Source: an uncultured Amylibacter sp.
GTDB taxonomy: Bacteria > Pseudomonadota > Alphaproteobacteria > Rhodobacterales > Rhodobacteraceae
Reading direction: 5' to 3'
Assembly (NCBI GenBank): GCA_964195605.1
Contig: CAXMSA010000002.1
Coordinates: 608-64,607, forward strand
DNA: 64,000 nt
The notes beneath the pieces were generated by a model, which had not been told where the DNA came from, ran no database searches, and saw nothing but the letters and a program-made list of their open reading frames with translations. The position numbers and the translations under genes were made by a program. Below, one piece after another: positions 3,845-42,350 of the stretch. The first letter of the stretch is position 1. Each line of letters begins with the position of its first letter.

Positions 3845-6337
3845 ATGAAAACCCATGTGAAAGCTCTGGTTGTTGGTGGTGGTGCTGTTGGTACAGGCAT
3901 TGCATATCATTTAGCGAAATACGGCTGGGATGATGTGATGTTGCTGGAACGCGATGAGCTGACTTCGGGGTCAACTTGGCACGCCGCTGGATTGTTGCCT
4001 TTGTTCAACATGGGTTATGCTACCACGCATTTGCATGATTATTCGGTTGAGTTTTATAAGTCGCTTGAGGCTGAAACTGGTCTGAACGCGGGATTTTCGA
4101 TTGTTGGCAACCTGCGCATGGCCCAAACCAAAGATCGTATGGATGAATATATGCTGTATGGTTCCGTCGCTGAAACTGTGGGCATTGAGTATCACCACCT
4201 GACGCCTAATGAGATCAAGGAACGCTGGCCACTTATTCGCACCGATGATTTGGAGGGTGCTATTTATCACCCGGGTGATGGCTATATCAACCCCGCCGAC
4301 GTGACCATGGCTATGGCCAAAGGCGCGCGCCAACGCGGTGTGACTATTGAACGGAAATGGCAGGTTGACGGGTACGAATGGACAGGGTCCGAATGGAAAG
4401 TTACCTGCACCAAGATGGTGGAAAAGGGCGGCAATCTGGTACCATCCGAAGAGCAAGTGATCATCACGGCTGAACATGTTGTGACGGCTACGGGCAACCA
4501 CGCGCAACGCACGGCACAATTACTGGGCATTAAAATCCCTGCAATCCCTGTGGAACACCAGTTTATTGTCACCGATAAAGACCCTGCTTTGGTGCAGTGG
4601 CGCTCAAACGGTAATCCTGAACACCCTGTGATCCGCGACGCGGATGCGCAATCTTATGTGCGTGAAGAACGTGGCGGTTGGATTTTGGGTGTTTATGAGG
4701 CCAACGCGCCGGCACGGTTTAAATACGGTGTGCCAGACAGCTTTCGCGCGGATCTATTCCCGCTGGAACTGGAACGCATCGAAGAACAATATATGGCGAT
4801 GATCCACAGGATGCCATCTTGTGAAGAAAGCGGCTTGAAAGACGATTTCAACGGCCCGATTTGCTACACACCTGATGGCAACCCGCTGGTGGGCCCAGCC
4901 CCCGGCCTGCGTAATATGTGGCTGGCGGAAGGCTTCTCTTTTGGCATTACCGCAGCAGGTGGTGTTGGCAATTATATGGCGCAAATGATGGTCGAAGGTG
5001 AGGCCGAGATCGATATGGCGTCACTTGACCCGAAACGCTACGGCTCTTGGATGACGACGGAATACGCCTCTGTGAAGAATGAGGAATGCTATGAGCACGT
5101 CTACATTTTGCACCACCCCGATGAAGAACGTGAAGCGGCACGCGGCCTTCGCACATCACCCGCTTATGACCGCCAAAAAGCGGCAGGCGCACAGTTTGGC
5201 CAAGTCAACGGCTGGGAGCGGCCTAATTATTACGCGCCTAACGGCTTTGACGATAACGCCGCACGGTCTTTTCGCCGTGGTGGTTGGTGGCAATATGTTG
5301 TGGAAGAGGCCAAAGCCATTCGTGAGGGCGTAGGCCTGATCGATGCGACTGCATTCACCAAGCATGTGGTCAAGGGGCCGGGTGCGACGCAATTCCTGGA
5401 TTGGTTTACGTGTAACAAGCTGCCGAAAATTGGCCGTATCAACCTAACTTACGCGCTGACATCGCACGGCACCACACGCACTGAATACACTATCGTGCGC
5501 AATGGCGAGGATGATTATTATCTTGTCTCTGCGGGTGCTTGGACAGCTTATGACGCGGATTATCTGCGCAAAGCCGCTGCCGATAAGGCCGAAGAGTTCG
5601 GCTATATCGAAATTCAGGATGTGACCAATCAATGGGGTGTGTTTGCGATTGCAGGGCCAAAAACCCGTGATGTTTTGAACAAGATCATCAAGGATGTTGA
5701 TCCTGTAACAGCGCTTAGCAACAAACACTTTCCGTGGTTGTCTGCACGCCAGATTGAACTGGGCATGTGCCCGGTCAATGCTATTCGTGTGGCTTATACT
5801 GGTGAGCTGGGTTGGGAATTGCACCACCCGATTGAGATGCAAAACTACCTATATGACTTGATCATGGAAGCGGGTGCCGATGTTGGCATCAAACTGGTGG
5901 GTGCGCGGGCGCAAAACTGGTTACGGCAAGAAAAATCCTACCGCGCGTTTGGTACCGAGTTGGGCCGTGATGCAACACCTGCCGAAGCTGATTTGCCACG
6001 TTTCATTGATCTGTCAAAAGATTTCTACGGCAAAGAGGCGATGGAAGCGAAGGGCATCCGTTCAAAATGTGTGACCCTGTTGATCGATGGACCTGCGGAC
6101 GCAGACCCATGGGGGCGTGAAGCACTTTATGACGGCGACAAAAAAGTCGGGCGTTTAACCTCCGGCGGGTATTCGGTTGCGTTCGAAAAATCAATCGGCA
6201 TGGGTTATCTGCCACCTGAATTGGCGGTTATGGGTCAAAAGCTGAAGGTCAGAATGTTCCGTGAATTGTGGGATGCGGAAGTGGTTGAAGACAGCCCTTA
6301 CAATCCAAATAATTCTACGATCAGGGTGGATGGGTAA
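3845..6337 (+). CDS. GcvT-family FAD-dependent oxidoreductase (dimethylglycine/sarcosine dehydrogenase-like)
   Basis: GGGAVG FAD motif, GSTWHAAG (covalent-FAD His), C-terminal aminomethyltransferase/THF domain (YTGELGWELH); 830 aa. Confidence 0.88.
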   Translation: MKTHVKALVVGGGAVGTGIAYHLAKYGWDDVMLLERDELTSGSTWHAAGLLPLFNMGYATTHLHDYSVEFYKSLEAETGLNAGFSIVGNLRMAQTKDRMDEYMLYGSVAETVGIEYHHLTPNEIKERWPLIRTDDLEGAIYHPGDGYINPADVTMAMAKGARQRGVTIERKWQVDGYEWTGSEWKVTCTKMVEKGGNLVPSEEQVIITAEHVVTATGNHAQRTAQLLGIKIPAIPVEHQFIVTDKDPALVQWRSNGNPEHPVIRDADAQSYVREERGGWILGVYEANAPARFKYGVPDSFRADLFPLELERIEEQYMAMIHRMPSCEESGLKDDFNGPICYTPDGNPLVGPAPGLRNMWLAEGFSFGITAAGGVGNYMAQMMVEGEAEIDMASLDPKRYGSWMTTEYASVKNEECYEHVYILHHPDEEREAARGLRTSPAYDRQKAAGAQFGQVNGWERPNYYAPNGFDDNAARSFRRGGWWQYVVEEAKAIREGVGLIDATAFTKHVVKGPGATQFLDWFTCNKLPKIGRINLTYALTSHGTTRTEYTIVRNGEDDYYLVSAGAWTAYDADYLRKAAADKAEEFGYIEIQDVTNQWGVFAIAGPKTRDVLNKIIKDVDPVTALSNKHFPWLSARQIELGMCPVNAIRVAYTGELGWELHHPIEMQNYLYDLIMEAGADVGIKLVGARAQNWLRQEKSYRAFGTELGRDATPAEADLPRFIDLSKDFYGKEAMEAKGIRSKCVTLLIDGPADADPWGREALYDGDKKVGRLTSGGYSVAFEKSIGMGYLPPELAVMGQKLKVRMFRELWDAEVVEDSPYNPNNSTIRVDG

Positions 6338-29368: not shown

Positions 29369-30202
29369 TTAAGATTTGATATTGGCCTCAGCTTCTTCAC
29401 CGCCTTCAATAACCAAAAGGTGTAACAGGCTTTCCAGAATCGCGATAACACCCAGATAACAGGCAAAAACATAAGGGCTTTCCATTTCGGCGGTTAATAC
29501 CGCTTCGGGTTCCAACTCTGAAAGTGGCAGGTTACTGTCAGTGATAATCAGTAGTTTCATGCCCTTTTTCCGGGCAAATTTGCAGGCGTTTACGGTGATC
29601 TGGCTATAGGGATGTACTGTGATGGCAAGCAAAACATCCTGATCAGAGGCAAAGTTCAGATCAACGATCGGGTTGGCCATATCACGGGGGACAAACTGCA
29701 CATTGGGCAAACCCAGCCGTGCTATATGCTGAAAATAATAGGCCAAAGCATAGCTGGTGCTGGTTGCTGTTACATAAACAGTGCGGGCATTAGTCAGTAT
29801 GGAAACGAATTTTTCCGAAACCTCTGGCGTCATATGACGTAAAGAGTGTTTCAGGATCGACATCGAATTTTCAGCGGAACTGGCCAGTATCGAGCCTGTG
29901 TTGCCCATTGCCGACAATTCATCCAGCCAGCTGGAATTGATAACCGGTTTTGATGTGGTGCGCAGGGCGCGTCTGAAAGGGTCGCGGAATTCTTCAAAAC
30001 CGGGAAATCCCAGTTCTTTTGACAGGCGGACAAGTGAATATGTGCTAACGCCGATTTTTTCGGCCGTAGTTCTGATCGGATCAAGACCAAAATCTGCGGG
30101 ATGGTCGATCACGTATTTCGCAGCTAATTGCAGCGTTGGAGCCAGCATTGAATACTGTTCCCGCATTTTTTTTAACACGCGATTTTGCTGCGTCGCACTC
30201 AT
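29369..30202 (-). CDS. MurR/RpiR family transcriptional regulator (HTH + SIS)
   Basis: AAKYVIDHP.DFGL..IR..A..IGVS.YSLVRLSKELGFPGFEEFR, followed by an SIS domain. Confidence 0.9.
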   Translation of the reverse strand: MSATQQNRVLKKMREQYSMLAPTLQLAAKYVIDHPADFGLDPIRTTAEKIGVSTYSLVRLSKELGFPGFEEFRDPFRRALRTTSKPVINSSWLDELSAMGNTGSILASSAENSMSILKHSLRHMTPEVSEKFVSILTNARTVYVTATSTSYALAYYFQHIARLGLPNVQFVPRDMANPIVDLNFASDQDVLLAITVHPYSQITVNACKFARKKGMKLLIITDSNLPLSELEPEAVLTAEMESPYVFACYLGVIAILESLLHLLVIEGGEEAEANIKS

Positions 30203-30260
30203 ATCAGAACTTTCACTTATTATTCATTTGAACAGTATAATCGAAAGTCCACGGACTTTG

Positions 30261-30989
30261 CTAGCTGGTTTGTATTTTTACTGCTTCAAGTTGCGCATAA
30301 AACGGTAAAGCCGCAGCCAACACAGCTTGCAACGCATCGCCAACATCGGGCAAAAGCCCTTCGATCCCGGCAAATCCTGTGCTGTTACGCACCGCAGGAT
30401 ACCAATGCGGCGCCCATGGCCCGTCTTGCGGGTGACCACCTTTGGGCCAGCTTAACATGGCCGGATCATAGGGCAGATCAATGGTCGTACATAAAGCGCG
30501 CAGCATGGCTGCGGGATTGGCGCGAATATCGGCGCTGTCGATGACAATGGGGGCGTGGCCCAAGTGCTGTGCAACCTGATCAAACAGCTCTGCCTGTTCC
30601 TGAAAACCGATGTCGCTCAGGCTAGGGCTTTCACGTTTGGCGTGGTAACTGGCAATGACCCTTGCAGGGTGGCGGATTAGGAAGATGTTAGTGACATCAT
30701 GCATCCATGTGCGGTCAAATCTGGGCAACATATGCTGGGTCATATGTTTTTGATAAAACACAGTTCTTTCCTGTGGTATGCTGCCTGTAAGGCGTTTGGA
30801 AATTTCTGCGGGATCGTGCAACCATGTGTCGAGTATCTCGGTGCGCATCGGATGATCAAGGCCGGTTTCCAGCAAATATGCTGCATAATAAGGCTCATCC
30901 CAAACCGCACAGTCGGAGCGTGCGCCAAAGGCATACATCATCGCGGTGGACAGGTTACGCGGTCCTGACCACATGGCGATGCGTTTCAT
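30261..30989 (-). CDS. Sulfotransferase-like P-loop protein (homolog of the N-terminal domain of plant BCAT-like proteins)
   Basis: MWSGPRNLSTAMMYAF..DEP(Y/F)Y..YQKHMT..FLIRHP..WAPHWY. Confidence 0.75.
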   Translation of the reverse strand: MKRIAMWSGPRNLSTAMMYAFGARSDCAVWDEPYYAAYLLETGLDHPMRTEILDTWLHDPAEISKRLTGSIPQERTVFYQKHMTQHMLPRFDRTWMHDVTNIFLIRHPARVIASYHAKRESPSLSDIGFQEQAELFDQVAQHLGHAPIVIDSADIRANPAAMLRALCTTIDLPYDPAMLSWPKGGHPQDGPWAPHWYPAVRNSTGFAGIEGLLPDVGDALQAVLAAALPFYAQLEAVKIQTS

Positions 30990-31894
30990 GTGGTTTCCGT
31001 AGCGATCAGATCGGCATAAAGCGCGCGAATACGCTGGGTGACAAGACCAAGTGTGGCATCGCCAATACTGCGCCCGTCGATCTGGGATACGGGTGTTTGT
31101 GCGCCAAATGTACCAGTCAGGAACGCTTCATCCGCACTATAGGTGTCCACAAGCGAATAATTGCGTTCTAGGCATTCAATGCCGTTGGCACGGCACAGAT
31201 CAATTACCTTCTGGCGGGTAATCCCGTTCATGCAATAGTCGCCCGTACTGGTCCAAACCACGCCCTTTTTAACGATGAAAAAGTTGCACGCGTTGGTGGT
31301 GTTCACAAAGCCGTTGATGTCCAGCATCAGGGCCTCATCCGCACCAGCCTTTTCGGCGGCGATACAGGCCAGTATGCAGTTCAGCTTGGAATGTGAGTTC
31401 AGTTTTGGGTCTTGGGTCATCGGCAGCCCGCGCAGATGTGGCACAGTGGCCAGACGGATCGGACGCGGCAGGGATGGTTTGGAATGTTCGCAAATAATCA
31501 CCACTGTCGGGCCTGTTTGCGATAGAGACGGGTGTTGGAACGGCTTGACCTTAACCCCGCGCGTGACCATCAGGCGGACATGCACATCCGTGGTCATATT
31601 GTTGGCTATGCGGGTGGCCTCAAGGGCGGCAATCACGCCCGCACGATCCATGCCGATATCAAGATCAATTGCTTTTGCGGCCTCAAACAGCCGGTCAATA
31701 TGTTCGTCCATGAACGCCCACTTCCCGTCATAAAGGCGCAAACCTTCCCAGACACCGTCGCCCAGCATAAAGCCGCTGTCATAAACCGAGACCACAGCTT
31801 GTGCGCGCGGCACGATTTGGCCGTTCACATATATCTTGATTGTCTCATTGCGTTGGTCATCGGCGGCTTGGTGGGTGGTGACGTGCTTGTCCAT
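30986..31894 (-). CDS. Class IV PLP aminotransferase (D-amino-acid/branched-chain aminotransferase-like)
   Basis: SVYDSGFMLGDGVWEGLR, PLP-Lys region HSKLNC, GITRQ, EAFLTGT. Confidence 0.9.
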   Translation of the reverse strand: MDKHVTTHQAADDQRNETIKIYVNGQIVPRAQAVVSVYDSGFMLGDGVWEGLRLYDGKWAFMDEHIDRLFEAAKAIDLDIGMDRAGVIAALEATRIANNMTTDVHVRLMVTRGVKVKPFQHPSLSQTGPTVVIICEHSKPSLPRPIRLATVPHLRGLPMTQDPKLNSHSKLNCILACIAAEKAGADEALMLDINGFVNTTNACNFFIVKKGVVWTSTGDYCMNGITRQKVIDLCRANGIECLERNYSLVDTYSADEAFLTGTFGAQTPVSQIDGRSIGDATLGLVTQRIRALYADLIATETT

Positions 31895-31975: not shown

Positions 31976-32926
31976 CTATTGCAAGAATTGCTCGTTCGGT
32001 ATGTGCAAGCCTTCCATCAGTGATGATAAGTGCGTGGTGCAATGTTTCAAAAAGGCCTCTGTGATCGGCATGTTTTCGGTTTCGGCATTCCAAATCAACT
32101 CGAAGGCGATAAAAGTCGGAGTGTTTTGATCTATCATCAGTTGGCGTGCAGTTTCCCGGTTCTCCGGCGCAATCTTTGACCAAGGCAATATCGCCGAGGC
32201 CAGCCCCAGGCGCGCCCATTCCTGCATCACCTGATAATTAACAGCCTGTCCTGCATATTCTTTGATGGTCTGGCCGCATTGGTTGAACCAGCTGCGGGTT
32301 GCGTTTGCGTGGCCACAGGTGTTGGGGGTTAATATGAAAGTCTCATCAGCCAGTTGGTTTATTGTTATCGGGCCGCTGCCTGTAACGATCGATGTGGCGC
32401 CATCGCGGGGCACCACGAAAATAGGCTCGCGGTAAAACGGCAGTGTAGCGGTTTTTATCCGCAGTGGTTTAGGGGTATGCTGCACTGGGCGTATGGCCAT
32501 GTTTACTTGTCCAGTTTCAAGGCAGATTATCAAATTATCCATGAAACATTCTTTGAAATAGCTGGCCACATCGGGGTTTTTATCTGTAAAGGGGCTGACC
32601 AGCGCATTGATCAGGCGCATGTCCAAAAGCGGAGAAAACCCGATGGCAAGCAGTTTGTGATCTGGCTCGAAATACAGTTTTGCCCTGTCAGCCAATTCGC
32701 GTTTTGTGTTCAACATCGCCTGTATTGCCGGCAACATATGGGTGCCGAACTGGGTCAGTTTGACATGCCGTGTAGTGCGTTCAAATAGCTTGCCGCCCAG
32801 TCCATCTTCCAGATGTTTGATGCCGTTTGATAGGGTGGGCTGGGTCACAAAGCAAGCCGCTGCTGCTTGGGTGAATGAGCCGGAATGAGCCACTTCAAGG
32901 GCAAACTTCAGATGGTTGAGGTTCAT
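31976..32926 (-). CDS. LysR family regulator (OxyR-like N-terminus)
   Basis: SFTQAAAACFVTQPTLSNGIKHLE..LGGKLFERTTR. Likely start ATG 32926. Confidence 0.92.
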   Translation of the reverse strand: MNLNHLKFALEVAHSGSFTQAAAACFVTQPTLSNGIKHLEDGLGGKLFERTTRHVKLTQFGTHMLPAIQAMLNTKRELADRAKLYFEPDHKLLAIGFSPLLDMRLINALVSPFTDKNPDVASYFKECFMDNLIICLETGQVNMAIRPVQHTPKPLRIKTATLPFYREPIFVVPRDGATSIVTGSGPITINQLADETFILTPNTCGHANATRSWFNQCGQTIKEYAGQAVNYQVMQEWARLGLASAILPWSKIAPENRETARQLMIDQNTPTFIAFELIWNAETENMPITEAFLKHCTTHLSSLMEGLHIPNEQFLQ

Positions 32927-32940
32927 TGGTTTTCCTATAT

Positions 32941-32979
32941 ATAGAAAAATTCTATTAAACATATTTTAAAATAGAATTT
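32941..32979. promoter_or_regulatory. LysR operator region
   Basis: ATAG-N7-CTAT (T-N11-A) at 32941-32955, overlapped by the 10-bp inverted repeat AAATTCTATT...AATAGAATTT. Confidence 0.6.
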
Positions 32980-33046: not shown

Positions 33047-33667
33047 ATGAAAGTATATGACATTGAGAATTTCCCGAACCCTGCGCGTGTGCGCATTGCT
33101 TTGGCGGAAAAAAACGTAACGGATCAGGTGGAATTTATACCAGTTGACGTGATGGGCGGCGAACATCGGACAGAGGCGTTTTGCGCCAAGAACCCCGATG
33201 CATCCGTGCCTTATGTGGAGCTGGAGGATGGTACCATCTTGTCGCAATGCACAGCAATTACCGAATATATCGACGGGCATTTTGAAGGTACGTCTTTATG
33301 TGGTGACACCCCGAAGGAGCGCGCGGTGATCCATATGATGAACCGCCGTGCTGAGGCAAATTTGCTGGATGCAGTTGGTGCGTATTTTCACCATGCGACA
33401 GACGGTCTTGGGCCTGATCTTGAGTTACCACAGAATAAAGAATGGGGCTTGGGCCAGCGCGAAAACGCCTTGTCGACGATGCAATATCTTGATGATACAC
33501 TTGCCACATCAGATTACCTTGCGGGTGATGCGTTTTCGATGGCGGATATCACGGCCTTCGCAGGTCTGGCTTTTGCAGATTTCGCAGGCGTGGAAATCGC
33601 CAACGAATTGAAGAATTTAACAGCGTGGCGCGCCAAAGTTGCCGCCCGCCCAAGTATCGCAGGATAG
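33047..33667 (+). CDS. Glutathione S-transferase family protein
   Basis: PNPARVRIALAEK, NPDASVPYVELEDG..SQCTAITEY, YLAGDAFSMADI. Confidence 0.92.
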   Translation: MKVYDIENFPNPARVRIALAEKNVTDQVEFIPVDVMGGEHRTEAFCAKNPDASVPYVELEDGTILSQCTAITEYIDGHFEGTSLCGDTPKERAVIHMMNRRAEANLLDAVGAYFHHATDGLGPDLELPQNKEWGLGQRENALSTMQYLDDTLATSDYLAGDAFSMADITAFAGLAFADFAGVEIANELKNLTAWRAKVAARPSIAG

Positions 33668-33676
33668 GGGATTATT

Positions 33677-34354
33677 ATGAAAATTAATGCGGATTTTGAC
33701 AAACGTGTAATGGTGCATTCCGATGAGCTGGACTGGATTACTTCCCCCACTGCGGGAGTTGACCGGCGGATGCTTGACCGGATCGGTGACGAAGTGGCGC
33801 GCGCGACAACGATTGTGCGTTATGCCAAAGGTAGCAAGTTTCCGGCGCATGTCCATACGGGCGGTGAAGAGTTTATCGTTTTGGATGGTGTGTTTCAGGA
33901 TGAACATGGCAATTTACCTGCGGGTAGTTATATCCGCAACCCGCCAACCACACGCCATGCGCCCGGCTCGGATGATGGCTGCACGATTTTCGTGAAACTG
34001 TGGCAGTATGATATGGATGATCGTACGCAAGTTACGACCGATATGAACAAAAACACCTCTGTTGATGCTGCGGGCCGTGATGGTGTTGCAGTCATGCCAT
34101 TGTTTAGTGACACGCGTGAAACTGTTAAGATGGAAACATGGGATGCAGGGGCTAAGGTTGCGATGGATTTACCGCAAGGCGGTGAGTTTCTGGTACTGGA
34201 TGGCGGGTTTAATGACGGCGTCGATGATCTGCGCAGGCATTCGTGGCTACGCTTGCCCGTTGGCAGTGCATTCTCTGCGGTTGCAGGCGCTAAAGGTGCT
34301 AAGGTTTGGATCAAAACTGGGCATTTACCCTATGCAAAAGCACCGAAAGGATAA
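33677..34354 (+). CDS. ChrR-like tandem cupin-domain protein
   Basis: F.AHVHTGGEEFIVLDGVFQDEHG..PAGSYIRNP...HAP; second cupin lobe at the C-terminus. Confidence 0.85.
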   Translation: MKINADFDKRVMVHSDELDWITSPTAGVDRRMLDRIGDEVARATTIVRYAKGSKFPAHVHTGGEEFIVLDGVFQDEHGNLPAGSYIRNPPTTRHAPGSDDGCTIFVKLWQYDMDDRTQVTTDMNKNTSVDAAGRDGVAVMPLFSDTRETVKMETWDAGAKVAMDLPQGGEFLVLDGGFNDGVDDLRRHSWLRLPVGSAFSAVAGAKGAKVWIKTGHLPYAKAPKG

Positions 34355-34357
34355 GAT

Positions 34358-35041
34358 ATGGCAGATAGGCAACTGGCAATCGTTGCAGGGGTGGGGGCGG
34401 GCTTAGGCCACGCCCTTTTGCGCCGTTTTGACGCGGGTGGGATGCAAGCCGTTGGGCTTGCCCGCAGTCCGTCGACCAATAATAACGGTCTGGATATTCG
34501 GGTTTGCGACCTAAGTGATGTGCAAGCTGTAAAGGCCGTTATTGCTGAGCTGATCCAAGAGTTCGGCGCGCCCAATATTGTAGTGCATAACCCGTCTAAT
34601 CTTGTGATAGCGCCGTTTCTTGAACTGGATCTTGATGCTTTTGAAGCCAGTTGGCGCGCGATGGTTTTATCGGCGGCGGTTCTGGGGCAAGCGATTTTAC
34701 CAGCAATGGTAAAGGCTGAAGCTGGCGCATTTATCGTGTCAGGGGCCACGGCCAGTCTGCGCGGTGGGGCACGATTTGCAGCCCTTGCCTCACCCAAATT
34801 TGCGTTGCGCGGCTTGACCCAATCATTAGCGCGTGAATTTCAGCCCTTGGGTATTCATGTTATCCATGCGGTTCTGGACGGGATTATTGATACGAAGCGC
34901 AGTCGGGAAAAACATGGGTTGGATCCCGCTAAAATGATGCGTCCCGAAGATATTGCCGAGGCTTATTGGCATTTGGCGCATCAGCCGCGCTCTGCCTGGT
35001 CGCATGAGGTTGATCTGCGGCCGCAGACAGAGACGTTCTAA
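34358..35041 (+). CDS. Short-chain dehydrogenase/reductase
   Basis: AGVGAGLG NAD motif, SGATASLRG, KFALRGLTQSLARE. Confidence 0.88.
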   Translation: MADRQLAIVAGVGAGLGHALLRRFDAGGMQAVGLARSPSTNNNGLDIRVCDLSDVQAVKAVIAELIQEFGAPNIVVHNPSNLVIAPFLELDLDAFEASWRAMVLSAAVLGQAILPAMVKAEAGAFIVSGATASLRGGARFAALASPKFALRGLTQSLAREFQPLGIHVIHAVLDGIIDTKRSREKHGLDPAKMMRPEDIAEAYWHLAHQPRSAWSHEVDLRPQTETF

Positions 35042-35045
35042 AGTC

Positions 35046-36107
35046 ATGAATACGGATGTTATTATTATAGGTGGCGGCCTGTCCGGGCTTGCCTTGGCCG
35101 ATCATTTGCAACGCGCGGGCGTGGATTATCTGCTGCTTGAGGCGCGTATGCGGCTGGGTGGGCGGATTAAAGCCGCATCTGTGGGGGATGCAGGCTTTGA
35201 TCTGGGGCCATCGTGGTTTTGGCCGGGTCAGCCGCGCATGGCGGCAATGGTGGACCGGTTTGATCTGGCACGCTTTGAGCAATACGCCAAGGGTACGCTA
35301 TGTTTTGAAGATGAACGGGGTGCGGTGGAAAATGGGCTGGCCCATGCGCCCATGGCAGGGTCATACAGGATAGAAGGCGGAATTTATGCCTTGATAGATC
35401 GGTTGGTTGCCAGCCTTGGAACACAAAATATACTGCTGGATGCGGCAGTGAACGCATTGCGTTATGATAATGCGGCTGTCACGGTTCAGTTGCAAAATGG
35501 TAAAGCCTTTTCAGGGAAACGCGTGGTTCTGGCTTTGCCACCACGTGTGGCTGCGGGTTTGACATATGCGCCTGCACTGCCTGATGCGGCGATGGAAGCG
35601 ATGCGTTCCATTCCCACTTGGATGGGCGGGCAGGCGAAGTTTCTGGCGATTTATGACCGCCCTTTCTGGCGTGAAAAAGGCTTGTCTGGCGATGCGATGA
35701 GCCGACATGGCCCGTTGGTGGAAGTCCATGATGCGACGGACCCTAAAACCGGTCTAGGGGCCTTGTTTGGTTTTGTCGATGTGCCCGCAACGGGGCGGCT
35801 TGGGCAAGATGAGACAATTAAAACGGCGGCGATTGGCCAACTTGGACGGCTGTTCGGGCCGCAGGCTTTGCAGCCAAAACAGGTGTTTTACCAAGATTGG
35901 GCACAGGCTGTGGAAACCGCATCTGATCTTGATCTGGAACCTTTGTATGAGCATCCGGCCTATGGTTTGCCAAAGCCCTTGTCGGGGCTTTGGAATAAAC
36001 GTTTGCGTATGGGATCCACAGAAGTTACGGCAGAGTTTGGCGGTTATCTGGAAGGGGCTTTGGATGTTGCGGAATATCTTGCTCAGGATTTAATTGCTGA
36101 TAGATAG
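35046..36107 (+). CDS. Flavin monoamine-oxidase-family FAD oxidoreductase
   Basis: IGGGLSGL..EAR.RLGGRI, DLGPSW, GGYLEGAL. Start ATG 35046; the track start 34953 overlaps the SDR. Confidence 0.85.
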   Translation: MNTDVIIIGGGLSGLALADHLQRAGVDYLLLEARMRLGGRIKAASVGDAGFDLGPSWFWPGQPRMAAMVDRFDLARFEQYAKGTLCFEDERGAVENGLAHAPMAGSYRIEGGIYALIDRLVASLGTQNILLDAAVNALRYDNAAVTVQLQNGKAFSGKRVVLALPPRVAAGLTYAPALPDAAMEAMRSIPTWMGGQAKFLAIYDRPFWREKGLSGDAMSRHGPLVEVHDATDPKTGLGALFGFVDVPATGRLGQDETIKTAAIGQLGRLFGPQALQPKQVFYQDWAQAVETASDLDLEPLYEHPAYGLPKPLSGLWNKRLRMGSTEVTAEFGGYLEGALDVAEYLAQDLIADR

Positions 36108-36155
36108 GGCAAATGCAAAGCCGCGCGGGCGGTTGGAAGTCATGGGAGATATGAC

Positions 36156-36983
36156 ATGGAAATTCTATCGGAAAACACCTGTTTTGGCGGGGTTCAGGGC
36201 GTTTACAAACATGCGTCAGTTGCCTGTCAGTGCGACATGACATTTGCAGTTTATCTGCCGCCACAGGCCAAGATACAAAAAGTGCCGGTACTGTGGTTTC
36301 TATCGGGCCTGACTTGTACCCACGAAAATGCCATGACCAAAGCGGGGGCGCAGGCTTGGGCTGCTAAATACGGGGTGGCTTTGGTGTTTCCTGACACCTC
36401 GCCACGCGGTGAAGCCGTGGCGAATGATGAGGCTTATGATCTGGGTCAAGGGGCCGGGTTTTATGTGGATGCTGTACAAAAACCCTGGGCACCGCATTTT
36501 AATATGTGGACATATGTGACCGAAGAATTGCCTAAACTGGTGACGGCTGAATTCGAAGTTTTAGAGGAAAAACAAGGTATTACTGGACATTCTATGGGCG
36601 GTCACGGGGCTTTGACCATTGCGATGACACTGCCTGATCGTTACCGATCTGTTTCTGCATTCGCACCGATTGCCAACCCATCCGCCTCTGATTGGGGGCG
36701 CAAGCAATTGGGGGCTTATCTGGGGGCGGATGAGGCGGCTTGGCTGGCGCATGATGCGTCATTGTTGATGGCAGAGCGCGGCTTTCATGCCCCGGTTCTA
36801 ATAGATCAGGGCACGGCGGATAATTTTCTGGATTTGTTAAAGCCGCAGGCGTTAGCAGATGCGATTATCGCACGCAAACAGGCCGCGACTTTGCGGATGC
36901 AAAACGGTTATGACCACAGTTATTTCTTCATTCAAAGCTTCATGGAAGATCATGTAAAGTTTCACGCTGAATTATTGAAGTGA
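36156..36983 (+). CDS. fghA: S-formylglutathione hydrolase
   Basis: LSGLTC, PDTSPRG, GHSMGGHGA, GYDHSYFFI. Confidence 0.95.
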   Translation: MEILSENTCFGGVQGVYKHASVACQCDMTFAVYLPPQAKIQKVPVLWFLSGLTCTHENAMTKAGAQAWAAKYGVALVFPDTSPRGEAVANDEAYDLGQGAGFYVDAVQKPWAPHFNMWTYVTEELPKLVTAEFEVLEEKQGITGHSMGGHGALTIAMTLPDRYRSVSAFAPIANPSASDWGRKQLGAYLGADEAAWLAHDASLLMAERGFHAPVLIDQGTADNFLDLLKPQALADAIIARKQAATLRMQNGYDHSYFFIQSFMEDHVKFHAELLK

Positions 36984-37477
36984 TACGATCTCGCGCCTGA
37001 AGAGTTGCTTGGCAACCTTTTCGGGGTCTTCCTCATAATTTCTTGCAGCCGTATGGCCCGCTTAGACTGCGCCTGCAATCAGGCTGTGGCTGGCGGCGTC
37101 GTCGATCAGTTCTAACGTTTGAAGTTTTGTATCGCTTATTATCAGCGTGTCATAAAGATTGTTGTGGCGGGTGCGTTTTGTGACCAGAAAAACCGCGCCG
37201 CAGGTGATGTCTTGTAATTGCCCTGAATAGGTGCAGGCCAGTTTGCAACCCGTGGCACTGATCGCGGCCAATTCTTGGTTTGTGTGAATTTTACATTCTT
37301 CGGTGCTGACAACGCCCCAATCACCTTCTGCTTTCATTGCATACATGGCGGCGTGGGCTTGTGGTCTGACATGGCCCATGCCGCAACAATGCGGGAATTG
37401 ATAGAAGCGGTTTGGTGCGGTGACTGGGCCGATTTTTACTGGTTCGAACAGGATGGAATATTTATTATTATCGGCAT
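36972..37477 (-). pseudogene. Trimethylamine/histamine dehydrogenase-like flavoprotein pseudogene with a large internal deletion
   Basis: N-terminus YSILFEPVKIGPVTAPNRFYQFPHCCGMGH..KAEGDWGVVSTEECKIH joined in frame to C-terminal-type sequence LVTKR..LY..LIAGAV*AGHTAAR..FRRE. Frameshift just after ATG 37477 and in-frame TAA at 37062-37064. Confidence 0.8.
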
Positions 37478-37522
37478 CCTTTGCACCTTAAATTTTGATT
37501 GTACTGTGCTTTATTTTATGGA

Positions 37523-37540
37523 ATTATACAAGTGTATAAT
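37523..37540. promoter_or_regulatory. Palindromic TetR operator candidate
   Basis: ATTATACA-AG-TGTATAAT in the divergent interval between the pseudogene and tetR. Confidence 0.65.
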
Positions 37541-37554
37541 AAGAAGCAGTTCAA

Positions 37555-38187
37555 ATGGTAGATTCGCGAAAAAGTTTTAAACGGGAAAGCTCTGACCAAC
37601 GTCAGGATGACCTGATTGAAGCCACGCTGTCGCTGATCGCGTCAGGCGGGCCTGAAGTTGCGACCGTGCGTAATATAGCACTTGAGGCGGGCGTAACACC
37701 GGGGCTGATAAGGCATTATTTTTCGACCAAAGAAGATTTGATCGGGGCGGCTTATGAGCGGCATATGACAACGATGCGCTACGCCGCATATTCGCCGCTT
37801 GAACAAGAGCTGCCCGGTGCGGTGGCACGTCTTGCAGCCCTTGTTAAAGCTTCTGTTTTACCACCTGTTGTCGATCCGCGTTCGCTAGCTTTATGGGCTG
37901 GTTTTATCCAGTCAGTTCAACGGGATGACGCAATGAAGGTGATCCACGAAAGAACCTATCGCCAGTTTAGGGATCAACTGCAGGAACTTATTAGGGACGC
38001 GTTTCTTGAGCTGGGACAGCCCAAAACTAAAACGGATTTGCGTAAGCTTGCGATTGCCTGCAACGCGGTTATGGACGGGTTGTGGTTAGAAGGCAGTGCG
38101 CTGCCAGATACGTTTCAAGCGGGCGAGTTGCCTGCGATTGGCTTGGCATCTGTGGGTGCAATTCTTGGCCTGAAACTGGAGGAATAA
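37555..38187 (+). CDS. TetR family regulator (BetI-like C-terminal domain)
   Basis: LIEATL..ATVRNIA.EAGVTPGLIRHYF..KEDL; A.MDGLWLE. Confidence 0.92.
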   Translation: MVDSRKSFKRESSDQRQDDLIEATLSLIASGGPEVATVRNIALEAGVTPGLIRHYFSTKEDLIGAAYERHMTTMRYAAYSPLEQELPGAVARLAALVKASVLPPVVDPRSLALWAGFIQSVQRDDAMKVIHERTYRQFRDQLQELIRDAFLELGQPKTKTDLRKLAIACNAVMDGLWLEGSALPDTFQAGELPAIGLASVGAILGLKLEE

Positions 38188-38189
38188 TA

Positions 38190-39383
38190 ATGCGATTTGC
38201 AAACATTACCGAACGGCTTGCCGGTTTGGGCAGTGAGAAATGGGCTGTGCATCTACATGCGTTAAAATTGCAGGCAGAGGGGCGTGATATTATCAAAATG
38301 ACCATTGGCGAACCCGATACCCCGCCGCCTGCCGCGTTGATAAAAACAGCGGTTGAAGCGATGCAAAATGGGCGCACACGCTATTCAAACGGGCGCGGTG
38401 AGCAGGGGCTTCTAGAGGCCCTTTCTAAACGCTATACGCAAAGCAGCGGGCGGGCGATTGCGCCTGACCAGTTCATCTGTCTACCCGGCACGCAATCGGC
38501 ACTTTATGTGGCGATGCAGGGCATCGCGCAAACGGGCGATGAGGTACTGGTTGGCGACCCCATGTATGCCACTTACGAAGGGGTGATTGCGGCGAGTGGT
38601 GCAACGTTGGTGCCGGTACCGATTAGGGCTGAAAACGGGTTTCGTTTGGCGGCGGCGGATATTGCGGCGCGTATAACCCCCAAGAGCCGTGTGATTTTGT
38701 TGAACAGTCCGCATAACCCGTCAGGCGCGATCTTGACGGCGGATGATATTGCGAAAATTGGTGCGTTGGCGATAAAACATGATCTGTGGATTGTAGCGGA
38801 TGAGGTCTATGAAGAGCTGGTGTTTGATGCCGCCACATTCGTGTCACCCTTGGCTTTTGCAGAACTGGCAGAGCGGGTGATTGTGGTCTCGTCAATTTCA
38901 AAATCCCATGCGTCACCGGGGTTTCGCAGTGGCTGGTGTATTGGGTCTTCTGACTTCATCAAACACCTGCTTTGTGTGGCTGAAACCATGCTGTTCGGCA
39001 ACCAGCCGTTTATCGCAGATATGACAGCGGAAGCGGTTTCAGAACCTTCCGAGGTGGCAGTAGGGATGAGGCGCAGGTTTGCCCGCCGTGCGGAGCTGGT
39101 GTTTGAGGCGTTGGACGGGGTTGCCGGGCTGCGTGTCAGCCGACCAGAAGCTGGAATGTTTGCACTGATAGATGTGTCGGCTTTGGGTATGGATAGCAAT
39201 GAATACGCGCTGGATCTGTTGCAAAATGCTGGTGTTGCGGTGATGCCGGGGACATCTTTTGGCGATTGCATTAAGGGCTGGGTGCGTATTGCGCTGACAG
39301 TTGATAACGAGACCACTTTGCGGGCCTGTGAACGGATTGCAGGTCACGCTAACGCTTTGATTAAATTAAAGGAAGCATCATGA
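38190..39383 (+). CDS. Class I/II PLP aminotransferase, AruH (arginine:pyruvate transaminase)-like
   Basis: MRFANITERLAG, TIGEPD, NSPHNPSG, DEVYE, SISKSHA..G.RSGW. Start ATG 38190 behind a GGAGG RBS. Confidence 0.85.
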   Translation: MRFANITERLAGLGSEKWAVHLHALKLQAEGRDIIKMTIGEPDTPPPAALIKTAVEAMQNGRTRYSNGRGEQGLLEALSKRYTQSSGRAIAPDQFICLPGTQSALYVAMQGIAQTGDEVLVGDPMYATYEGVIAASGATLVPVPIRAENGFRLAAADIAARITPKSRVILLNSPHNPSGAILTADDIAKIGALAIKHDLWIVADEVYEELVFDAATFVSPLAFAELAERVIVVSSISKSHASPGFRSGWCIGSSDFIKHLLCVAETMLFGNQPFIADMTAEAVSEPSEVAVGMRRRFARRAELVFEALDGVAGLRVSRPEAGMFALIDVSALGMDSNEYALDLLQNAGVAVMPGTSFGDCIKGWVRIALTVDNETTLRACERIAGHANALIKLKEAS

Positions 39384-40951
39384 AAACCATTGGGGAAGCG
39401 CTTGTAGCACAGTTAGAACAACGCGGCGTAGAAATTGTGTTTGGCATTCCGGGGGTACACACGGTCGAATTGTATCGCGGGCTGGCAAGTTCGGGTATTC
39501 GACATGTCACATCACGCCATGAACAAGGCGTGGGCTTTATGGCAGACGGTTATGCGCGGGTGTCGGGCAAGCCGGGGGTGGCTTTTGTGATCACTGGGCC
39601 GGGTTTGGCTAACACGTTGACACCGATGGGGCAGGCGCGTGCTGACAGTAGTTCTATGTTGGTGGTCTCTGGGGTCAACGCGACCACGACTTTGGGGCGC
39701 GGTTTGGGCTGTTTGCACGAATTGCCGGAACAACAGAAGATGACCGCAACAGTGGCTTTAGTCTCAACCCAACTGACGGCAGACAGTGATCTGACGCCTG
39801 CACTGGATCGCGCGTATGATCTGTTTGCGAATGCGCGCGGTGGTCCTGTGCATATCGAGGTGCCTACAGATGTGATGAAGCTGGCTTATACGGCTACGGA
39901 TGAGGTGCCTATTGCAAGCACGCTCAAAGACAAGCTGGATATAACAAAAGTAGCTGCGGTTTTAAGTGCCGCAAAATCGCCTGTGATTATAGCAGGTGGC
40001 GGCGCACGCCGGGCAGAAAGTGATCTGTTTGCGCTCGCGGTTCGGTTGGATGCGCCTGTGGTGGAAACCGTGAATGGGCGCGGACTATTGCATGGGGATG
40101 CATTATGTGTACCTGCCAGCCCCAGCCTGAAATCGGTTAATGCCTTGATTGAGGGCGCAGATGTAGTTCTGGCTTTGGGCACCGAGTTCGGACCGACGGA
40201 TTACGGCATGTGTGGCACGCTATGCCCACCCAAGATTGCCAAGCTGATCCGTGTGGATATTTGCACCGAACAACTGGCACGCCACCCTGTGGACCATGGC
40301 ATATGCGGGCGGGTGGAAGATGTTTTGCCTGATCTGCTTGTGGCCTTGGGTGATGGTGCTGCGCAACATAATGGCGCAAGCCGTGCAGATGCGGTCAGAC
40401 GTGCGGCATGGGATGAGGTTGGGGAAGATTACCGGCTGCAAATTGGCCTGCTTGAGACCATTCAAGCGGCGATGCCAAACGCGATACTGATCGGGGACAG
40501 CACCCAAGTGACCTATGCGGGCAACCTTTATTATGACCACGACCGTGCGGGCGGCTGGTTTAATGCAGCCACGGGTTTTGGCGCACTGGGCTTTTCCATT
40601 CCGGCCTGTATCGGGGCGGCTTTGGCTGATCCAACGGCACAGGTGGTGTGTTTGGTCGGCGACGGCGGCGCGCAGTTTTCAATGCCTGAGATTATGGTGG
40701 CGGTGGATGAAAAGCTACCCATTCTGTTCATTGTTTGGAACAATGAGGGTTATCAGGAAATTGAAACCTCTATGGCGCGTGCGGGGGTGGCTGTTGTTGG
40801 CTGTGATCCGACACCACCCAAGTTTGAATATATTGCCAAGGCTTGCGGCATACCGTTTCAAAGCTGTGAAATGACAAAAGAGGGTTTGGCCGAAGCGTTA
40901 CGGGGTGAACGGCCATTAAGTGGCCCTGCGATGATCGAAATTAAAGCTTAG
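39380..40951 (+). CDS. ThDP-dependent decarboxylase, AruI (5-guanidino-2-oxopentanoate decarboxylase)-like
   Basis: FGIPGVHTVELY, RHEQGVGFMADGYAR, GDGG-X-NN ThDP motif; translationally coupled to the AruH-like gene. Confidence 0.82.
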   Translation: MKTIGEALVAQLEQRGVEIVFGIPGVHTVELYRGLASSGIRHVTSRHEQGVGFMADGYARVSGKPGVAFVITGPGLANTLTPMGQARADSSSMLVVSGVNATTTLGRGLGCLHELPEQQKMTATVALVSTQLTADSDLTPALDRAYDLFANARGGPVHIEVPTDVMKLAYTATDEVPIASTLKDKLDITKVAAVLSAAKSPVIIAGGGARRAESDLFALAVRLDAPVVETVNGRGLLHGDALCVPASPSLKSVNALIEGADVVLALGTEFGPTDYGMCGTLCPPKIAKLIRVDICTEQLARHPVDHGICGRVEDVLPDLLVALGDGAAQHNGASRADAVRRAAWDEVGEDYRLQIGLLETIQAAMPNAILIGDSTQVTYAGNLYYDHDRAGGWFNAATGFGALGFSIPACIGAALADPTAQVVCLVGDGGAQFSMPEIMVAVDEKLPILFIVWNNEGYQEIETSMARAGVAVVGCDPTPPKFEYIAKACGIPFQSCEMTKEGLAEALRGERPLSGPAMIEIKA

Positions 40952-40959
40952 AGGATAGT

Positions 40960-41742
40960 ATGACTGAACCTACATTTGAATTTACCCGCGCCGTCACCCG
41001 TAAGCCCAGTGCCAGTATTGTAGATGGGTTGCGTGCATTTGATATTGGTACGCCTGATCACGCGCAGATGCTTGATGATCATGCGCATTATGTGAAGACC
41101 TTGCGTGAAACTGGTGCTGACGTGGTGGAATTGCCAGCTTTAGGGGCCTACCCCGATGCGGTGTTTGTTGAAGACACAGCACTTTGCCTGCCCCAAGGGG
41201 CGATCATGATGCGCCCTGGTGCGCCAAGCCGTGCGGGTGAAGTGGATGGCATGGCCCCGGTTTTGCGCGAGTTTTACGATGTGGTTCTGGATATTAACGG
41301 CCCCGGATTTATTGAAGGTGGGGATATTCTGGTCACGTCCATGGAAATACTGGTGGGGCGGTCAGACCGCACCGATGCAGCAGGGGTGGCAGAATTGCAA
41401 AGCCTTGTAGCACCTTGGGGTTACATTGTGCGTGAGGTGTTTACGCCCGAAGGTGTGCTACATTTCAAAACCGATTGTTCGCTGTTGGATGGGGAAACCA
41501 TTTTGGCAACAAAACGGCTGGAAGCTTCGGGATGTTTTGAAGGCTACCGGGTTATTCATACTGCTGAAGGTGAAGAGGCGGCAGCGAATGCGATCCGGTT
41601 CAATCAATTTGTGCTGATGGCGGCAGGCTTTCCAAAGACCGCAAAGCGATTACGCGATGCGGGTTTTGAGGTGCGCGAGATCAACAACACGGAATGTGCC
41701 AAGTTGGACGGCGGCATGTCGTGCCTTTCGTTGCGATTTTAA
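40960..41742 (+). CDS. Dimethylarginine dimethylaminohydrolase (DDAH)/amidinotransferase family protein
   Basis: PDAVFVED, IEGGD, LHFKT, DGGMSCLS (catalytic Asp/Glu, His, Cys). Confidence 0.88.
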   Translation: MTEPTFEFTRAVTRKPSASIVDGLRAFDIGTPDHAQMLDDHAHYVKTLRETGADVVELPALGAYPDAVFVEDTALCLPQGAIMMRPGAPSRAGEVDGMAPVLREFYDVVLDINGPGFIEGGDILVTSMEILVGRSDRTDAAGVAELQSLVAPWGYIVREVFTPEGVLHFKTDCSLLDGETILATKRLEASGCFEGYRVIHTAEGEEAAANAIRFNQFVLMAAGFPKTAKRLRDAGFEVREINNTECAKLDGGMSCLSLRF

Positions 41743-41771: not shown

Positions 41772-41859
41772 AGCATAAACTTCTGAAAAGCGTACAGATA
41801 AGGTGCATCGCAAAAGGCGGTGCCAATTTCAAAGAAATATATACCAGAAGGAGAATATC

Positions 41860-42312
41860 ATGAAAATGGCCCTATCCGCTATGTGCATTCTTACACTCTT
41901 TGCCACTGGCCCCACCTTTGCAGGGGGTGATCTGAGCCGCGCCAATGTGATTGACGTTGTGATCGAAATGGGAAGCAATGATGACGGGATGTACCTGAAG
42001 CCAGACAATTACGTGTTTGAGACGGGGCAGGCGTATAAACTGATCCTGAAAAATGTTGATGAGATCAAGCATGAGCTGGCACTTAACGAAATGGGCGAAA
42101 GAATTTTCACCCGTAAGGTCGAAGCATCTGATGCGGACGGTAATCTGATTACCGAAGTGAAAGGCGCAATCAATGAGGTGGAAGTCGGGGCGGGGCAAAC
42201 CGTTGAATGGTTCATCGTTCCCGTGCAGACAACAAAATCACCAGTTGAGATTACCTGCGAAATTCCCGGTCATCTGGAAGCTGGGATGCGTGCGAGTGTT
42301 GAGATCAATTAA
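41860..42312 (+). CDS. Periplasmic cupredoxin (type-1 copper, CopI/plastocyanin-like)
   Basis: Signal peptide, KHEL, CEIPGHLEAGM (His/Cys/His/Met ligands). Start ATG 41860. Confidence 0.85.
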   Translation: MKMALSAMCILTLFATGPTFAGGDLSRANVIDVVIEMGSNDDGMYLKPDNYVFETGQAYKLILKNVDEIKHELALNEMGERIFTRKVEASDADGNLITEVKGAINEVEVGAGQTVEWFIVPVQTTKSPVEITCEIPGHLEAGMRASVEIN

Positions 42313-42321
42313 AACGAAGTT

Positions 42322-42350
42322 ACCACTGCCAAAATGTAATTGGCAGTGGT
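42322..42350. terminator. Bidirectional terminator
   Basis: ACCACTGCCAA-7 nt-TTGGCAGTGGT between convergent genes. Confidence 0.75.

Follow-up and report, generated by a model that had tools for sequence, protein, structure and literature searches.

What does a bacterium gain by keeping a gene for a DDAH-like hydrolase in the same operon as a pair of genes typical of the arginine transaminase pathway? The question is raised by a 64,000-nt stretch of DNA (hereafter, the window) from an uncultured Amylibacter sp. (assembly GCA_964195605.1, contig CAXMSA010000002.1), in which tetR, an aminotransferase gene, a gene for a thiamine diphosphate (ThDP)-dependent decarboxylase and a DDAH-like gene follow one another behind a palindromic operator (Table 1). 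A preliminary description of this locus had proposed a coordinated route for the use of methylated arginines, in which the released methylamines were oxidized to formaldehyde and the formaldehyde removed by the product of the nearby fghA, with only the amine-oxidizing branch missing from this strain. From sequence comparisons, we hold with moderate confidence that the four-gene operon and its operator (37523-41742) form a TetR-controlled module for the breakdown of guanidino amino acids of the arginine type, with methylarginines plausibly among them; the formaldehyde branch did not survive the analysis. The source resembles Amylibacter (Rhodobacterales), with the DDAH-like protein 81-92% identical to those encoded in Amylibacter metagenome-assembled genomes (MAGs), and near-identical DNA was found only in metagenomic DNA runs, from marine, sediment and ice samples.

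A four-gene operon under one operator

The four genes are tightly packed, with a 2-bp gap between tetR and the aminotransferase gene, a 4-bp ATGA overlap between the latter and the decarboxylase gene, and an 8-bp gap before the DDAH-like gene; their coordinates and spacings proved to be exactly those first described. The palindrome ATTATACAAGTGTATAAT occurs a single time in the 64 kb (chance expectation 0.01 at three mismatches or fewer), and none of 100 shuffles equalled the observed count. It ends 15 bp 5′ of the tetR ATG, encloses a TATAAT-like -10 element and lies approximately 37 bp upstream of the former start of a divergent dehydrogenase gene. The TetR protein itself matches Pfam TetR_N (45.8 bits) and TetR_C_6 (67.6 bits), and orthologues of its gene with 52-60% identity stand first in the corresponding operon of other genera. 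In all 15 loci where tetR, aminotransferase, ThDP and DDAH genes occur together, an operator of the form ATTATRCA-N2-YGTATAAT lies upstream of tetR at a distance of 30-45 bp, and the motif was also found in Phaeobacter inhibens, Sinorhizobium sp. M103, Oceanimonas (two copies) and Denitrobaculum. We presume that ATTATACAAGTGTATAAT is the binding site of the TetR repressor.

Conservation of the operon was surveyed among 80 species representatives carrying a DDAH-like orthologue with at least 58% identity. The full set of four genes with the operator was present in 15 of these, namely in Amylibacter (L001, L002, and L005), Roseovarius, Ruegeria, Parasedimentitalea, Hoeflea, a Rhizobiaceae-group bacterium and unclassified Rhodobacterales MAGs. 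A four-gene ABC importer lies divergent from tetR in 7 of these 15 loci, with a binding protein that most resembles cationic-amino-acid, LAO and HisJ proteins; the complete eight-gene unit (PGA1_RS19255-19290, of which PGA1_RS19255 is the DDAH-like gene), with the operator, is also carried by plasmid pPGA1_262 of P. inhibens DSM 17395. Within the window, a search for LAO-type and Pot-type ABC importers returned generic ATPase similarity only. Partial assemblies of the same modules were found as well: the importer adjoins the DDAH gene without the full TetR, aminotransferase and ThDP set in 13 of the 80 loci, only an aminotransferase and/or ThDP gene stands beside it in two (L010 and L017), and a Granulosicoccus MAG has the aminotransferase, ThDP and DDAH genes without TetR or operator. 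Sinorhizobium sp. M103 carries the importer divergent from tetR, aminotransferase and ThDP genes, with the operator and without a DDAH gene, while Oceanimonas has an importer-TetR operon divergent from a DDAH gene, with two operator copies and without the aminotransferase and ThDP genes. Since the modules combine so freely under one type of TetR and operator in these two genera, their roles are probably parallel rather than sequential. The gammaproteobacterium Oceanimonas, judging by its gene content, holds a minimal version of the regulon. In Oceanimonas sp. CHS3-5 (L068:4523-4558), the two operators are adjacent and in opposite orientation, between the importer-TetR operon and the lone DDAH-like gene.

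Relative to the Amylibacter relatives, the ratio of non-synonymous to synonymous substitution rates (dN/dS) was 0.07-0.12 for tetR, 0.09-0.14 for the aminotransferase gene, about 0.09-0.10 for the ThDP gene and 0.06-0.15 for the DDAH-like gene. All four values therefore fall within 0.06-0.15, indicating purifying selection. Together with the conserved gene order and the conserved operator, this bears out the earlier suggestion that the four genes act as one unit.

The decarboxylase fits, and the aminotransferase probably fits, the role of arginine transaminase pathway components that had been assigned to them as an AruH/AruI-like pair. The ThDP enzyme contains three of three TPP domains (Pfam) and exceeds the cut-off of NF005712, '5-guanidino-2-oxopentanoate decarboxylase', over residues 1-522 (664 vs. 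500 bits), and the aminotransferase gene adjoins it directly upstream. For the aminotransferase there is no curated model; it matches Pfam Aminotran_1_2 with 224 bits, and its best NCBIfam match, below cut-off, is GntC, an enzyme acting on an arginine derivative. In Sinorhizobium sp. M103, the aminotransferase encoded in the same setting of divergent importer, TetR and ThDP genes is 54% identical to that of the window, and the product of the ThDP gene 3′ of it is 52% identical. Related enzymes have been assayed in S. meliloti, where AspC (SMc02262), with a stated 40% similarity to AruH, is an arginine:pyruvate transaminase that also accepts agmatine, ornithine and putrescine and makes guanidinobutanal from agmatine, and where IlvB1 decarboxylates 5-guanidino-2-oxopentanoate, and 5-amino-2-oxopentanoate seven times better (PMC7268258). 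We presume that the aminotransferase of the window is likewise an arginine (basic amino acid):pyruvate transaminase.

The DDAH-like protein matches Pfam PF02274 with 45 bits (cut-off 22.8), and the stretch from its residue 8 to 260 aligns unambiguously with positions 2-254 of Pseudomonas aeruginosa DDAH (PaDDAH; structures 3RHY and also 1H70) with E = 1e-50 and 38% identity over the full length. In a seven-sequence alignment, Leu18, Asp60, Phe63, Glu65, Asp66, Arg85, Arg132, His162, Asp244 and Cys249 (PaDDAH numbering) are invariant. The position of Glu114 is occupied by Glu in the DDAH-like protein and by Glu or Asp throughout the clade, and the catalytic triad of Cys249, His162 and Glu114 is retained. 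Apart from His162 and Cys249, the invariant residues presumably hold the alpha-amino acid and guanidino group of the substrate, as we assume from the 1H70 structure. The protein is presumed to be an Nw-(di)methyl-L-arginine hydrolase. A homologue on pSymB of S. meliloti (48% identity) lies in an unrelated gene context and is uninformative.

These components could be joined into a regulon with two entry points. The BetI-type TetR would bind the palindrome overlapping its own promoter and be released by an arginine-related effector. Through the first entry, the aminotransferase would turn arginine, and probably other basic amino acids, into the 2-oxo acid, from which the AruI/IlvB1-like decarboxylase would form 4-guanidinobutanal or 4-aminobutanal; we infer this step because of the family membership of both enzymes and the assayed Sinorhizobium orthologues. 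Through the second, the DDAH-type hydrolase would take Nw-methylated arginines, which would not be usable directly by the first route or by arginase, and convert them to citrulline and methylamine or dimethylamine, as suggested by its conserved active-site and substrate-binding residues. Uptake would fall to the cationic-amino-acid importer, which is encoded divergently from the common operator in most other genera according to synteny; in Amylibacter, its place is taken by a histamine-dehydrogenase-like gene, dead in this genome. Later steps, including an aldehyde dehydrogenase, a guanidinobutyrase and the use of methylamine, would be encoded elsewhere. A role in arginine and methylarginine catabolism is reasonable because the unit is conserved and is built from parts of the arginine transaminase pathway and the DDAH family.

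The divergent dehydrogenase and its decay

In the interval that separates fghA from the palindrome, the minus strand holds both ends of a dehydrogenase gene, joined to each other. At the corresponding site of the Amylibacter MAG L005, the gene is intact (L005:4459-6522, minus strand; 687 aa) and divergent from tetR, with the operator in the intergenic region of approximately 60-70 bp. Compared with the L005 gene, the remnant lacks 1 nt immediately behind the start codon (-1 frameshift) and ~1.58 kb of its interior (L005 4738-6318, approximately residues 69-586), and it carries a TAT-to-TAA stop at 37062-37064, so that only residues ~7-68 and 587-687 are retained. The possibility that the deletion junction is an artefact of MAG assembly was ruled out because contigs of independent metagenome runs span it: one contig of run X1 extends gap-free across 36000-38363, and one of run X3 covers 37122-37341 without differences. 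A minor contig of run X2 (depth 4.4 vs. ~13 for the main form), in which 36967 is followed at once by 37522, represents an allele without any dehydrogenase remnant alongside the remnant-bearing form in one sediment metagenome.

Decay of this gene has taken other forms in related genomes. L001 carries a different deletion (L005 5028-6389) together with frameshifts, and L002 keeps no more than ~50 bp from the 3′ end plus a scrap of 36 bp; three Amylibacter genomes, including that of the window, have therefore lost the dehydrogenase by differing lesions with the operon intact. Repeated loss beside an operon under purifying selection suggests that the dehydrogenase is dispensable and the operon is not. 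Moreover, the gene adjoins the operon in Amylibacter only and is absent from this position in the other 12 of the 15 full loci, and this synteny rules it out as a conserved divergent partner of tetR.

The L005 protein resembles histamine dehydrogenases (3K30 and 6DE6) and TMADH (2TMD) over its full length, with FMN, 4Fe-4S and ADP-binding domains. Among solved structures, it scored highest against the histamine dehydrogenases of Nocardioides simplex (3K30, 752 bits) and Rhizobium sp. 4-9 (6DE6, 719 bits), followed by 6L6J (649 bits) and TMADH (555 bits). Cys30, which forms the covalent FMN link in TMADH, is kept along with Trp264 and Asp267; in contrast, the aromatic bowl of TMADH, Tyr60/Trp264/Trp355, reads Glu/Trp/Asp, and the remnant itself still shows Glu at the Tyr60 position, within 'STEECKIH'. 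The PHC motif containing the 6-S-cysteinyl-FMN Cys, the CIGCNIC 4Fe-4S motif, Glu79 and Asp358 are all conserved. When compared with the eight residues proposed to bind histamine in the N. simplex enzyme (PMC10180351), three are identical (Glu79, Trp267, and Asp358) and five are altered (Gln65 to Glu, Ile74 to Leu, Phe77 to Tyr, Asn115 to His, and Tyr181 to Met). By these comparisons, the dehydrogenase, of which the window holds a dead remnant, is histamine-dehydrogenase-like and not TMADH-like. With an acidic pocket and no methylammonium bowl, it would suit a primary amine bearing a second positive group. The layout given in the preliminary description, with a palindrome, a damaged dehydrogenase gene and then fghA, is correct, and its TMADH-like label holds at the level of the superfamily only; an identity as TMADH or DMADH is contradicted by the best matches and by two of three bowl residues being acidic. 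A histamine-like dehydrogenase had been set beforehand as an outcome that would speak against the proposed route, and the sequence evidence points to that type of enzyme.

Could the dehydrogenase nevertheless have been a former member of the regulon? As a primary-amine type enzyme, it may have acted on a cationic amine such as agmatine and released 4-guanidinobutanal, providing a third entry point that was later lost, a suggestion we regard as possible and no firmer than tentative. It would complement rather than replace the two-entry reading, since the aldehyde is identical to the product of the aminotransferase and decarboxylase route. The pocket is of the histamine dehydrogenase type with three acidic residues, characterized histamine dehydrogenases also oxidize agmatine and putrescine (PMC10180351), and AspC of S. 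meliloti likewise makes guanidinobutanal from agmatine (PMC7268258). An independent association is provided by Denitrobaculum (L126:7195-10049 and L132:7255-10076), where a TetR homologue lies directly 5′ of a histamine-dehydrogenase-like gene, the operator reads TTTATGCAATTGTATAAT in L126 and ATTATTCAACTGTATAAT in L132, and the L132 TetR is 44% identical to that of the window. The pair is divergent from a gene for a TauD/gamma-butyrobetaine-hydroxylase-like dioxygenase. Judging from these arrangements, the regulator and operator family has acquired such a dehydrogenase twice independently, in Amylibacter and in Denitrobaculum, and the second case leaves room for a real functional link not involving formaldehyde, such as the conversion of agmatine to 4-guanidinobutanal. 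On the other hand, the five altered histamine-binding residues and the dispensability suggested by repeated loss argue against an agmatine-oxidizing member of the regulon, and the Denitrobaculum TetR may sense another ligand. In a survey of 80 orthologous dehydrogenase loci (55-75% identity), none had the DDAH operon beside it. The closest orthologues (66-75% identity), from Ruegeria, Leisingera and another Amylibacter MAG (L082, L084, L085, L086, L088, L096, L102, and L103, around position 8000), instead occur in islands controlled by a TetR of a different clade, in the order TetR, Pot-type ABC transporter, dehydrogenase, Rieske oxygenase alpha-subunit-like protein, MttB-family methyltransferase and class III aminotransferase. 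These islands are apparently uncharacterized.

Substrates of the operon and the formaldehyde proposal

Several observations weigh against assigning the operon to arginine and methylarginine catabolism. Neither the importer nor the aminotransferase and ThDP genes are near the DDAH orthologue in 50 of the 80 species representatives. The DDAH-like protein misses the cut-offs of the DDAH equivalog models (NF045658, 207 vs. 450 bits; NF045660, 157 vs. 340 bits; NF045659, 33 vs. 300 bits), and some PGAP records name it only as 'arginine deiminase family protein'. The correspondence of the M103 pair to aspC-ilvB1 of S. meliloti (SMc02262-SMc02263), inferred from gene order, is probable; the Sinorhizobium enzymes are promiscuous and IlvB1 favours 5-amino-2-oxopentanoate, so ornithine or another basic amino acid could be the physiological substrate. 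The annotated flanks (27.5-46.7 kb) and ten large open reading frames (ORFs) scanned farther off yielded neither a KauB-type aldehyde dehydrogenase nor a GbuA ureohydrolase, and these downstream enzymes may be located elsewhere in the genome. Lastly, the literature search yielded no paper on the combined cluster of TetR, aminotransferase, ThDP enzyme, DDAH and importer, and thus no outside confirmation; searches on DDAH in roseobacters, the PGA1_262p genes of P. inhibens and DdaR gave nothing relevant beyond the papers on S. meliloti AspC/IlvB1 and on histamine dehydrogenase engineering.

Some of these points would be expected of a plain operon for arginine or basic amino acids, in which the DDAH-like enzyme is a small arginine deiminase or dihydrolase, or acts on homoarginine, canavanine, hydroxyarginine or the guanidino and ureido amino acids of algae. 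Such an operon would account for the sub-threshold equivalog scores and for the frequent PGAP name, and it agrees with a regulon type shared with enzymes that act on arginine in Sinorhizobium and with hosts that are marine and partly associated with algae or sediment, where unusual guanidino amino acids occur. We nonetheless consider it unlikely. Arginine deiminase models match the DDAH-like protein very weakly (38 bits vs. a cut-off of 489), in contrast with its full-length likeness to PaDDAH and the invariance of all ligand-contacting residues. Furthermore, arginine deiminases have a His-x-Asp motif whose Asp, the second such residue, would hold the unsubstituted guanidinium, and the DDAH-like protein has His-Phe-Lys at the presumed equivalent place. 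Judging from its alignment and scores, the protein is a distinct subfamily within the DDAH clade.

A bolder version of the preferred reading makes the importer, TetR, aminotransferase, ThDP enzyme and DDAH a dedicated methylarginine salvage regulon of marine roseobacters, serving asymmetric dimethylarginine (ADMA), monomethylarginine (MMA) and symmetric dimethylarginine (SDMA) from algal and animal proteins, with DDAH taking ADMA and MMA, and the aminotransferase and decarboxylase forming an AGXT2-like route for SDMA and ADMA. So specific a function seems improbable to us at present. Mammals clear methylarginines by two parallel routes, through DDAH1 and through transamination by AGXT2. The likeness of the operon to that system, a hydrolase and a transaminase in parallel, would be one of analogy only; AGXT2 is a class III enzyme unrelated to the class I aminotransferase encoded here, and no decarboxylase follows it. 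Were the salvage function correct, bacteria would possess a counterpart to the two-branch clearance of mammals, and marine dissolved organic matter of a nitrogen-rich class would have a sink not recognized before.

Very unlikely, by comparison, is the original proposal that DDAH frees di- or trimethylamine, that a TMADH-like enzyme oxidizes it to formaldehyde for disposal by FghA, and that this strain has lost only the amine oxidation. It has several features to recommend it. The dehydrogenase does belong to the TMADH and histamine dehydrogenase superfamily, its divergence from tetR over the operator in L005 makes co-regulation geometrically plausible, and its closest orthologues have as neighbours MttB-like and Rieske enzymes of the kind that usually serves the catabolism of methylated amines. 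The product of fghA is, to judge from its match to TIGR02821 (430 vs. a cut-off of 282 bits), a bona fide S-formylglutathione hydrolase. However, the formaldehyde branch is left unsupported because the dehydrogenase is of the histamine type, occurs beside the operon in Amylibacter only and has been lost there repeatedly, and because fghA belongs to a different block. The higher scores of the histamine dehydrogenases (752 and 719 vs. 555 bits for TMADH), the replacement of Tyr60 and Trp355 of TMADH by Glu and Asp, and the retention of Glu79 and Asp358 of histamine dehydrogenase (residue list in PMC10180351) all oppose methylamine oxidation, as do three different lesions beside an operon under purifying selection. 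Neither the dehydrogenase nor fghA adjoins the operon in the 12 full loci outside Amylibacter. fghA is the last gene of a GST, ChrR-cupin, SDR, amine oxidase and fghA block with gaps of 3-48 bp, opposite a LysR gene, which looks like a glutathione-linked detoxification unit; the block is conserved in Amylibacter and never lies beside the operon in other genera. fghA is convergent to the dehydrogenase gene, with the 3′ ends of the two overlapping in L005, and belongs to another transcription unit. What stands of the methylarginine route first described is a four-gene core that is plausible for arginine and methylarginine catabolism; the lost amine-oxidizing branch and the place of FghA in the pathway do not.

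Scarcely credible, finally, is a sequential pathway in which the DDAH-like enzyme acts after the aminotransferase and decarboxylase on 4-guanidinobutyrate or a methylated form of it, in place of the guanidinobutyrase that, like an aldehyde dehydrogenase, is missing from the operon and its vicinity: the DDAH gene is indeed last in the operon, but Leu18, Asp60, Arg85 and Arg132, which would bind an alpha-amino and alpha-carboxylate group, are invariant, and the gene occurs with the importer alone in 13 loci and under TetR without the aminotransferase and ThDP genes in Oceanimonas.

Related systems and neighbouring features

The closest known system for the use of methylarginine is ddaR-ddaH of P. 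aeruginosa (PA1196-PA1195), with an adjoining basic amino acid/polyamine antiporter gene. Its physiological role was reportedly the subject of work on DdaH and DdaR by Lundgren and colleagues in the Journal of Bacteriology in 2017. Both systems place a DDAH-family hydrolase beside a dedicated regulator and a basic-amino-acid transporter, and the two hydrolases share 38% identity and identical catalytic and substrate-binding residues. In contrast to the P. aeruginosa system, which is governed by the sigma-54-dependent DdaR, the present operon has a TetR with a palindromic operator; any uptake system linked to it is an ABC importer rather than an antiporter, and the DDAH gene, whose product scores below the equivalog cut-off, is in an operon with the AruH/AruI-like pair. 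As in aruH-aruI of P. aeruginosa and aspC-ilvB1 of S. meliloti, a ThDP gene of the 5-guanidino-2-oxopentanoate decarboxylase type comes immediately after a class I aminotransferase gene, and the Sinorhizobium unit further has TetR, operator and divergent importer in common with the present operon (54% identity for the aminotransferase and 52% for the ThDP enzyme). P. aeruginosa aruHI are under the AruRS two-component system. Unlike these units, the operon described here has a DDAH-like gene appended and no kauB or gbuA nearby, and the substrate preference of the S. meliloti enzymes is broad.

Taken singly, the components of the operon are enzymes of known kinds that public records already annotate piece by piece; for their joining into one TetR regulon with a cationic-amino-acid importer, we found no description in the literature. 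The regulon occurs widely among abundant marine Rhodobacterales and is present on a plasmid of the genetically tractable P. inhibens DSM 17395. If the DDAH-like enzyme hydrolyzes methylarginines, the operon would show marine heterotrophs harvesting nitrogen from methylated arginine shed by eukaryotes, and would tie this harvest to the arginine transaminase pathway. Repeated decay of the dehydrogenase illustrates clearly, on a small scale, how a gene is lost beside a conserved operon. It also follows that a 'TMADH-like' annotation in this clade should not be taken as methylamine oxidation, nor a neighbouring fghA as a formaldehyde pathway.

Table 1. Features of the operon and of the adjoining fghA block, in positions of the window.
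Feature	Position	Strand or orientation	Basis
LysR gene	31976-32962	divergent from GST...fghA block	annotation
GST gene	33047-33667	same strand as fghA	annotation
ChrR-type cupin gene	33677-34354	same strand as fghA	annotation
SDR gene	34358-35041	same strand as fghA	annotation
Flavin amine oxidase-like gene	35046-36107	same strand as fghA	annotation
fghA (S-formylglutathione hydrolase)	36156-36983	+	TIGR02821
Histamine-dehydrogenase-like FMN/[4Fe-4S] amine dehydrogenase remnant (pseudogene)	~36975-37486	-	frame translation and alignment to L005 gene
Palindromic operator ATTATACAAGTGTATAAT	37523-37540	strandless	motif scan; presumed TetR binding site
tetR (TetR-family repressor, BetI-type C-terminal ligand domain)	37555-38187	+	Pfam
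Class I/II pyridoxal phosphate aminotransferase, AruH/AspC-like	38190-39383	+	Pfam Aminotran_1_2
ThDP-dependent 2-oxo-acid decarboxylase, AruI/IlvB1-like	39380-40951	+	NCBIfam NF005712
DDAH-family (pentein) hydrolase	40960-41742	+	Pfam PF02274 and alignment to PaDDAH

Two further features of the window, at 3845-6337 and 29369-31894, have no link to the DDAH operon. They are a dimethylglycine/sarcosine-dehydrogenase-type protein of 830 aa with DAO and GCV_T domains, and a cluster in which an RpiR regulator, a Sulfotransfer_5 protein and a class IV aminotransferase are encoded together. Scanned with Rfam over its full length, the window revealed no guanidine or other riboswitch, and no tRNAs were present in it. 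Promoter and terminator scans gave counts no higher than those of shuffled controls, and their sole useful item was a perfect hairpin with an 11-bp stem at 42322-42350. This hairpin lies 3′ of a small secreted ORF that is cupredoxin/CopI-like (41860-42312; NCBIfam CopI, 28 bits, below cut-off). The ORF stands between the DDAH gene and a PNPOx-like gene in this genome only; in L001, L002 and L005, the PNPOx gene is directly 3′ of the DDAH gene. GC content falls to 0.47 around 41803-42350, and the region of the cupredoxin-like ORF looks like a recent insertion.

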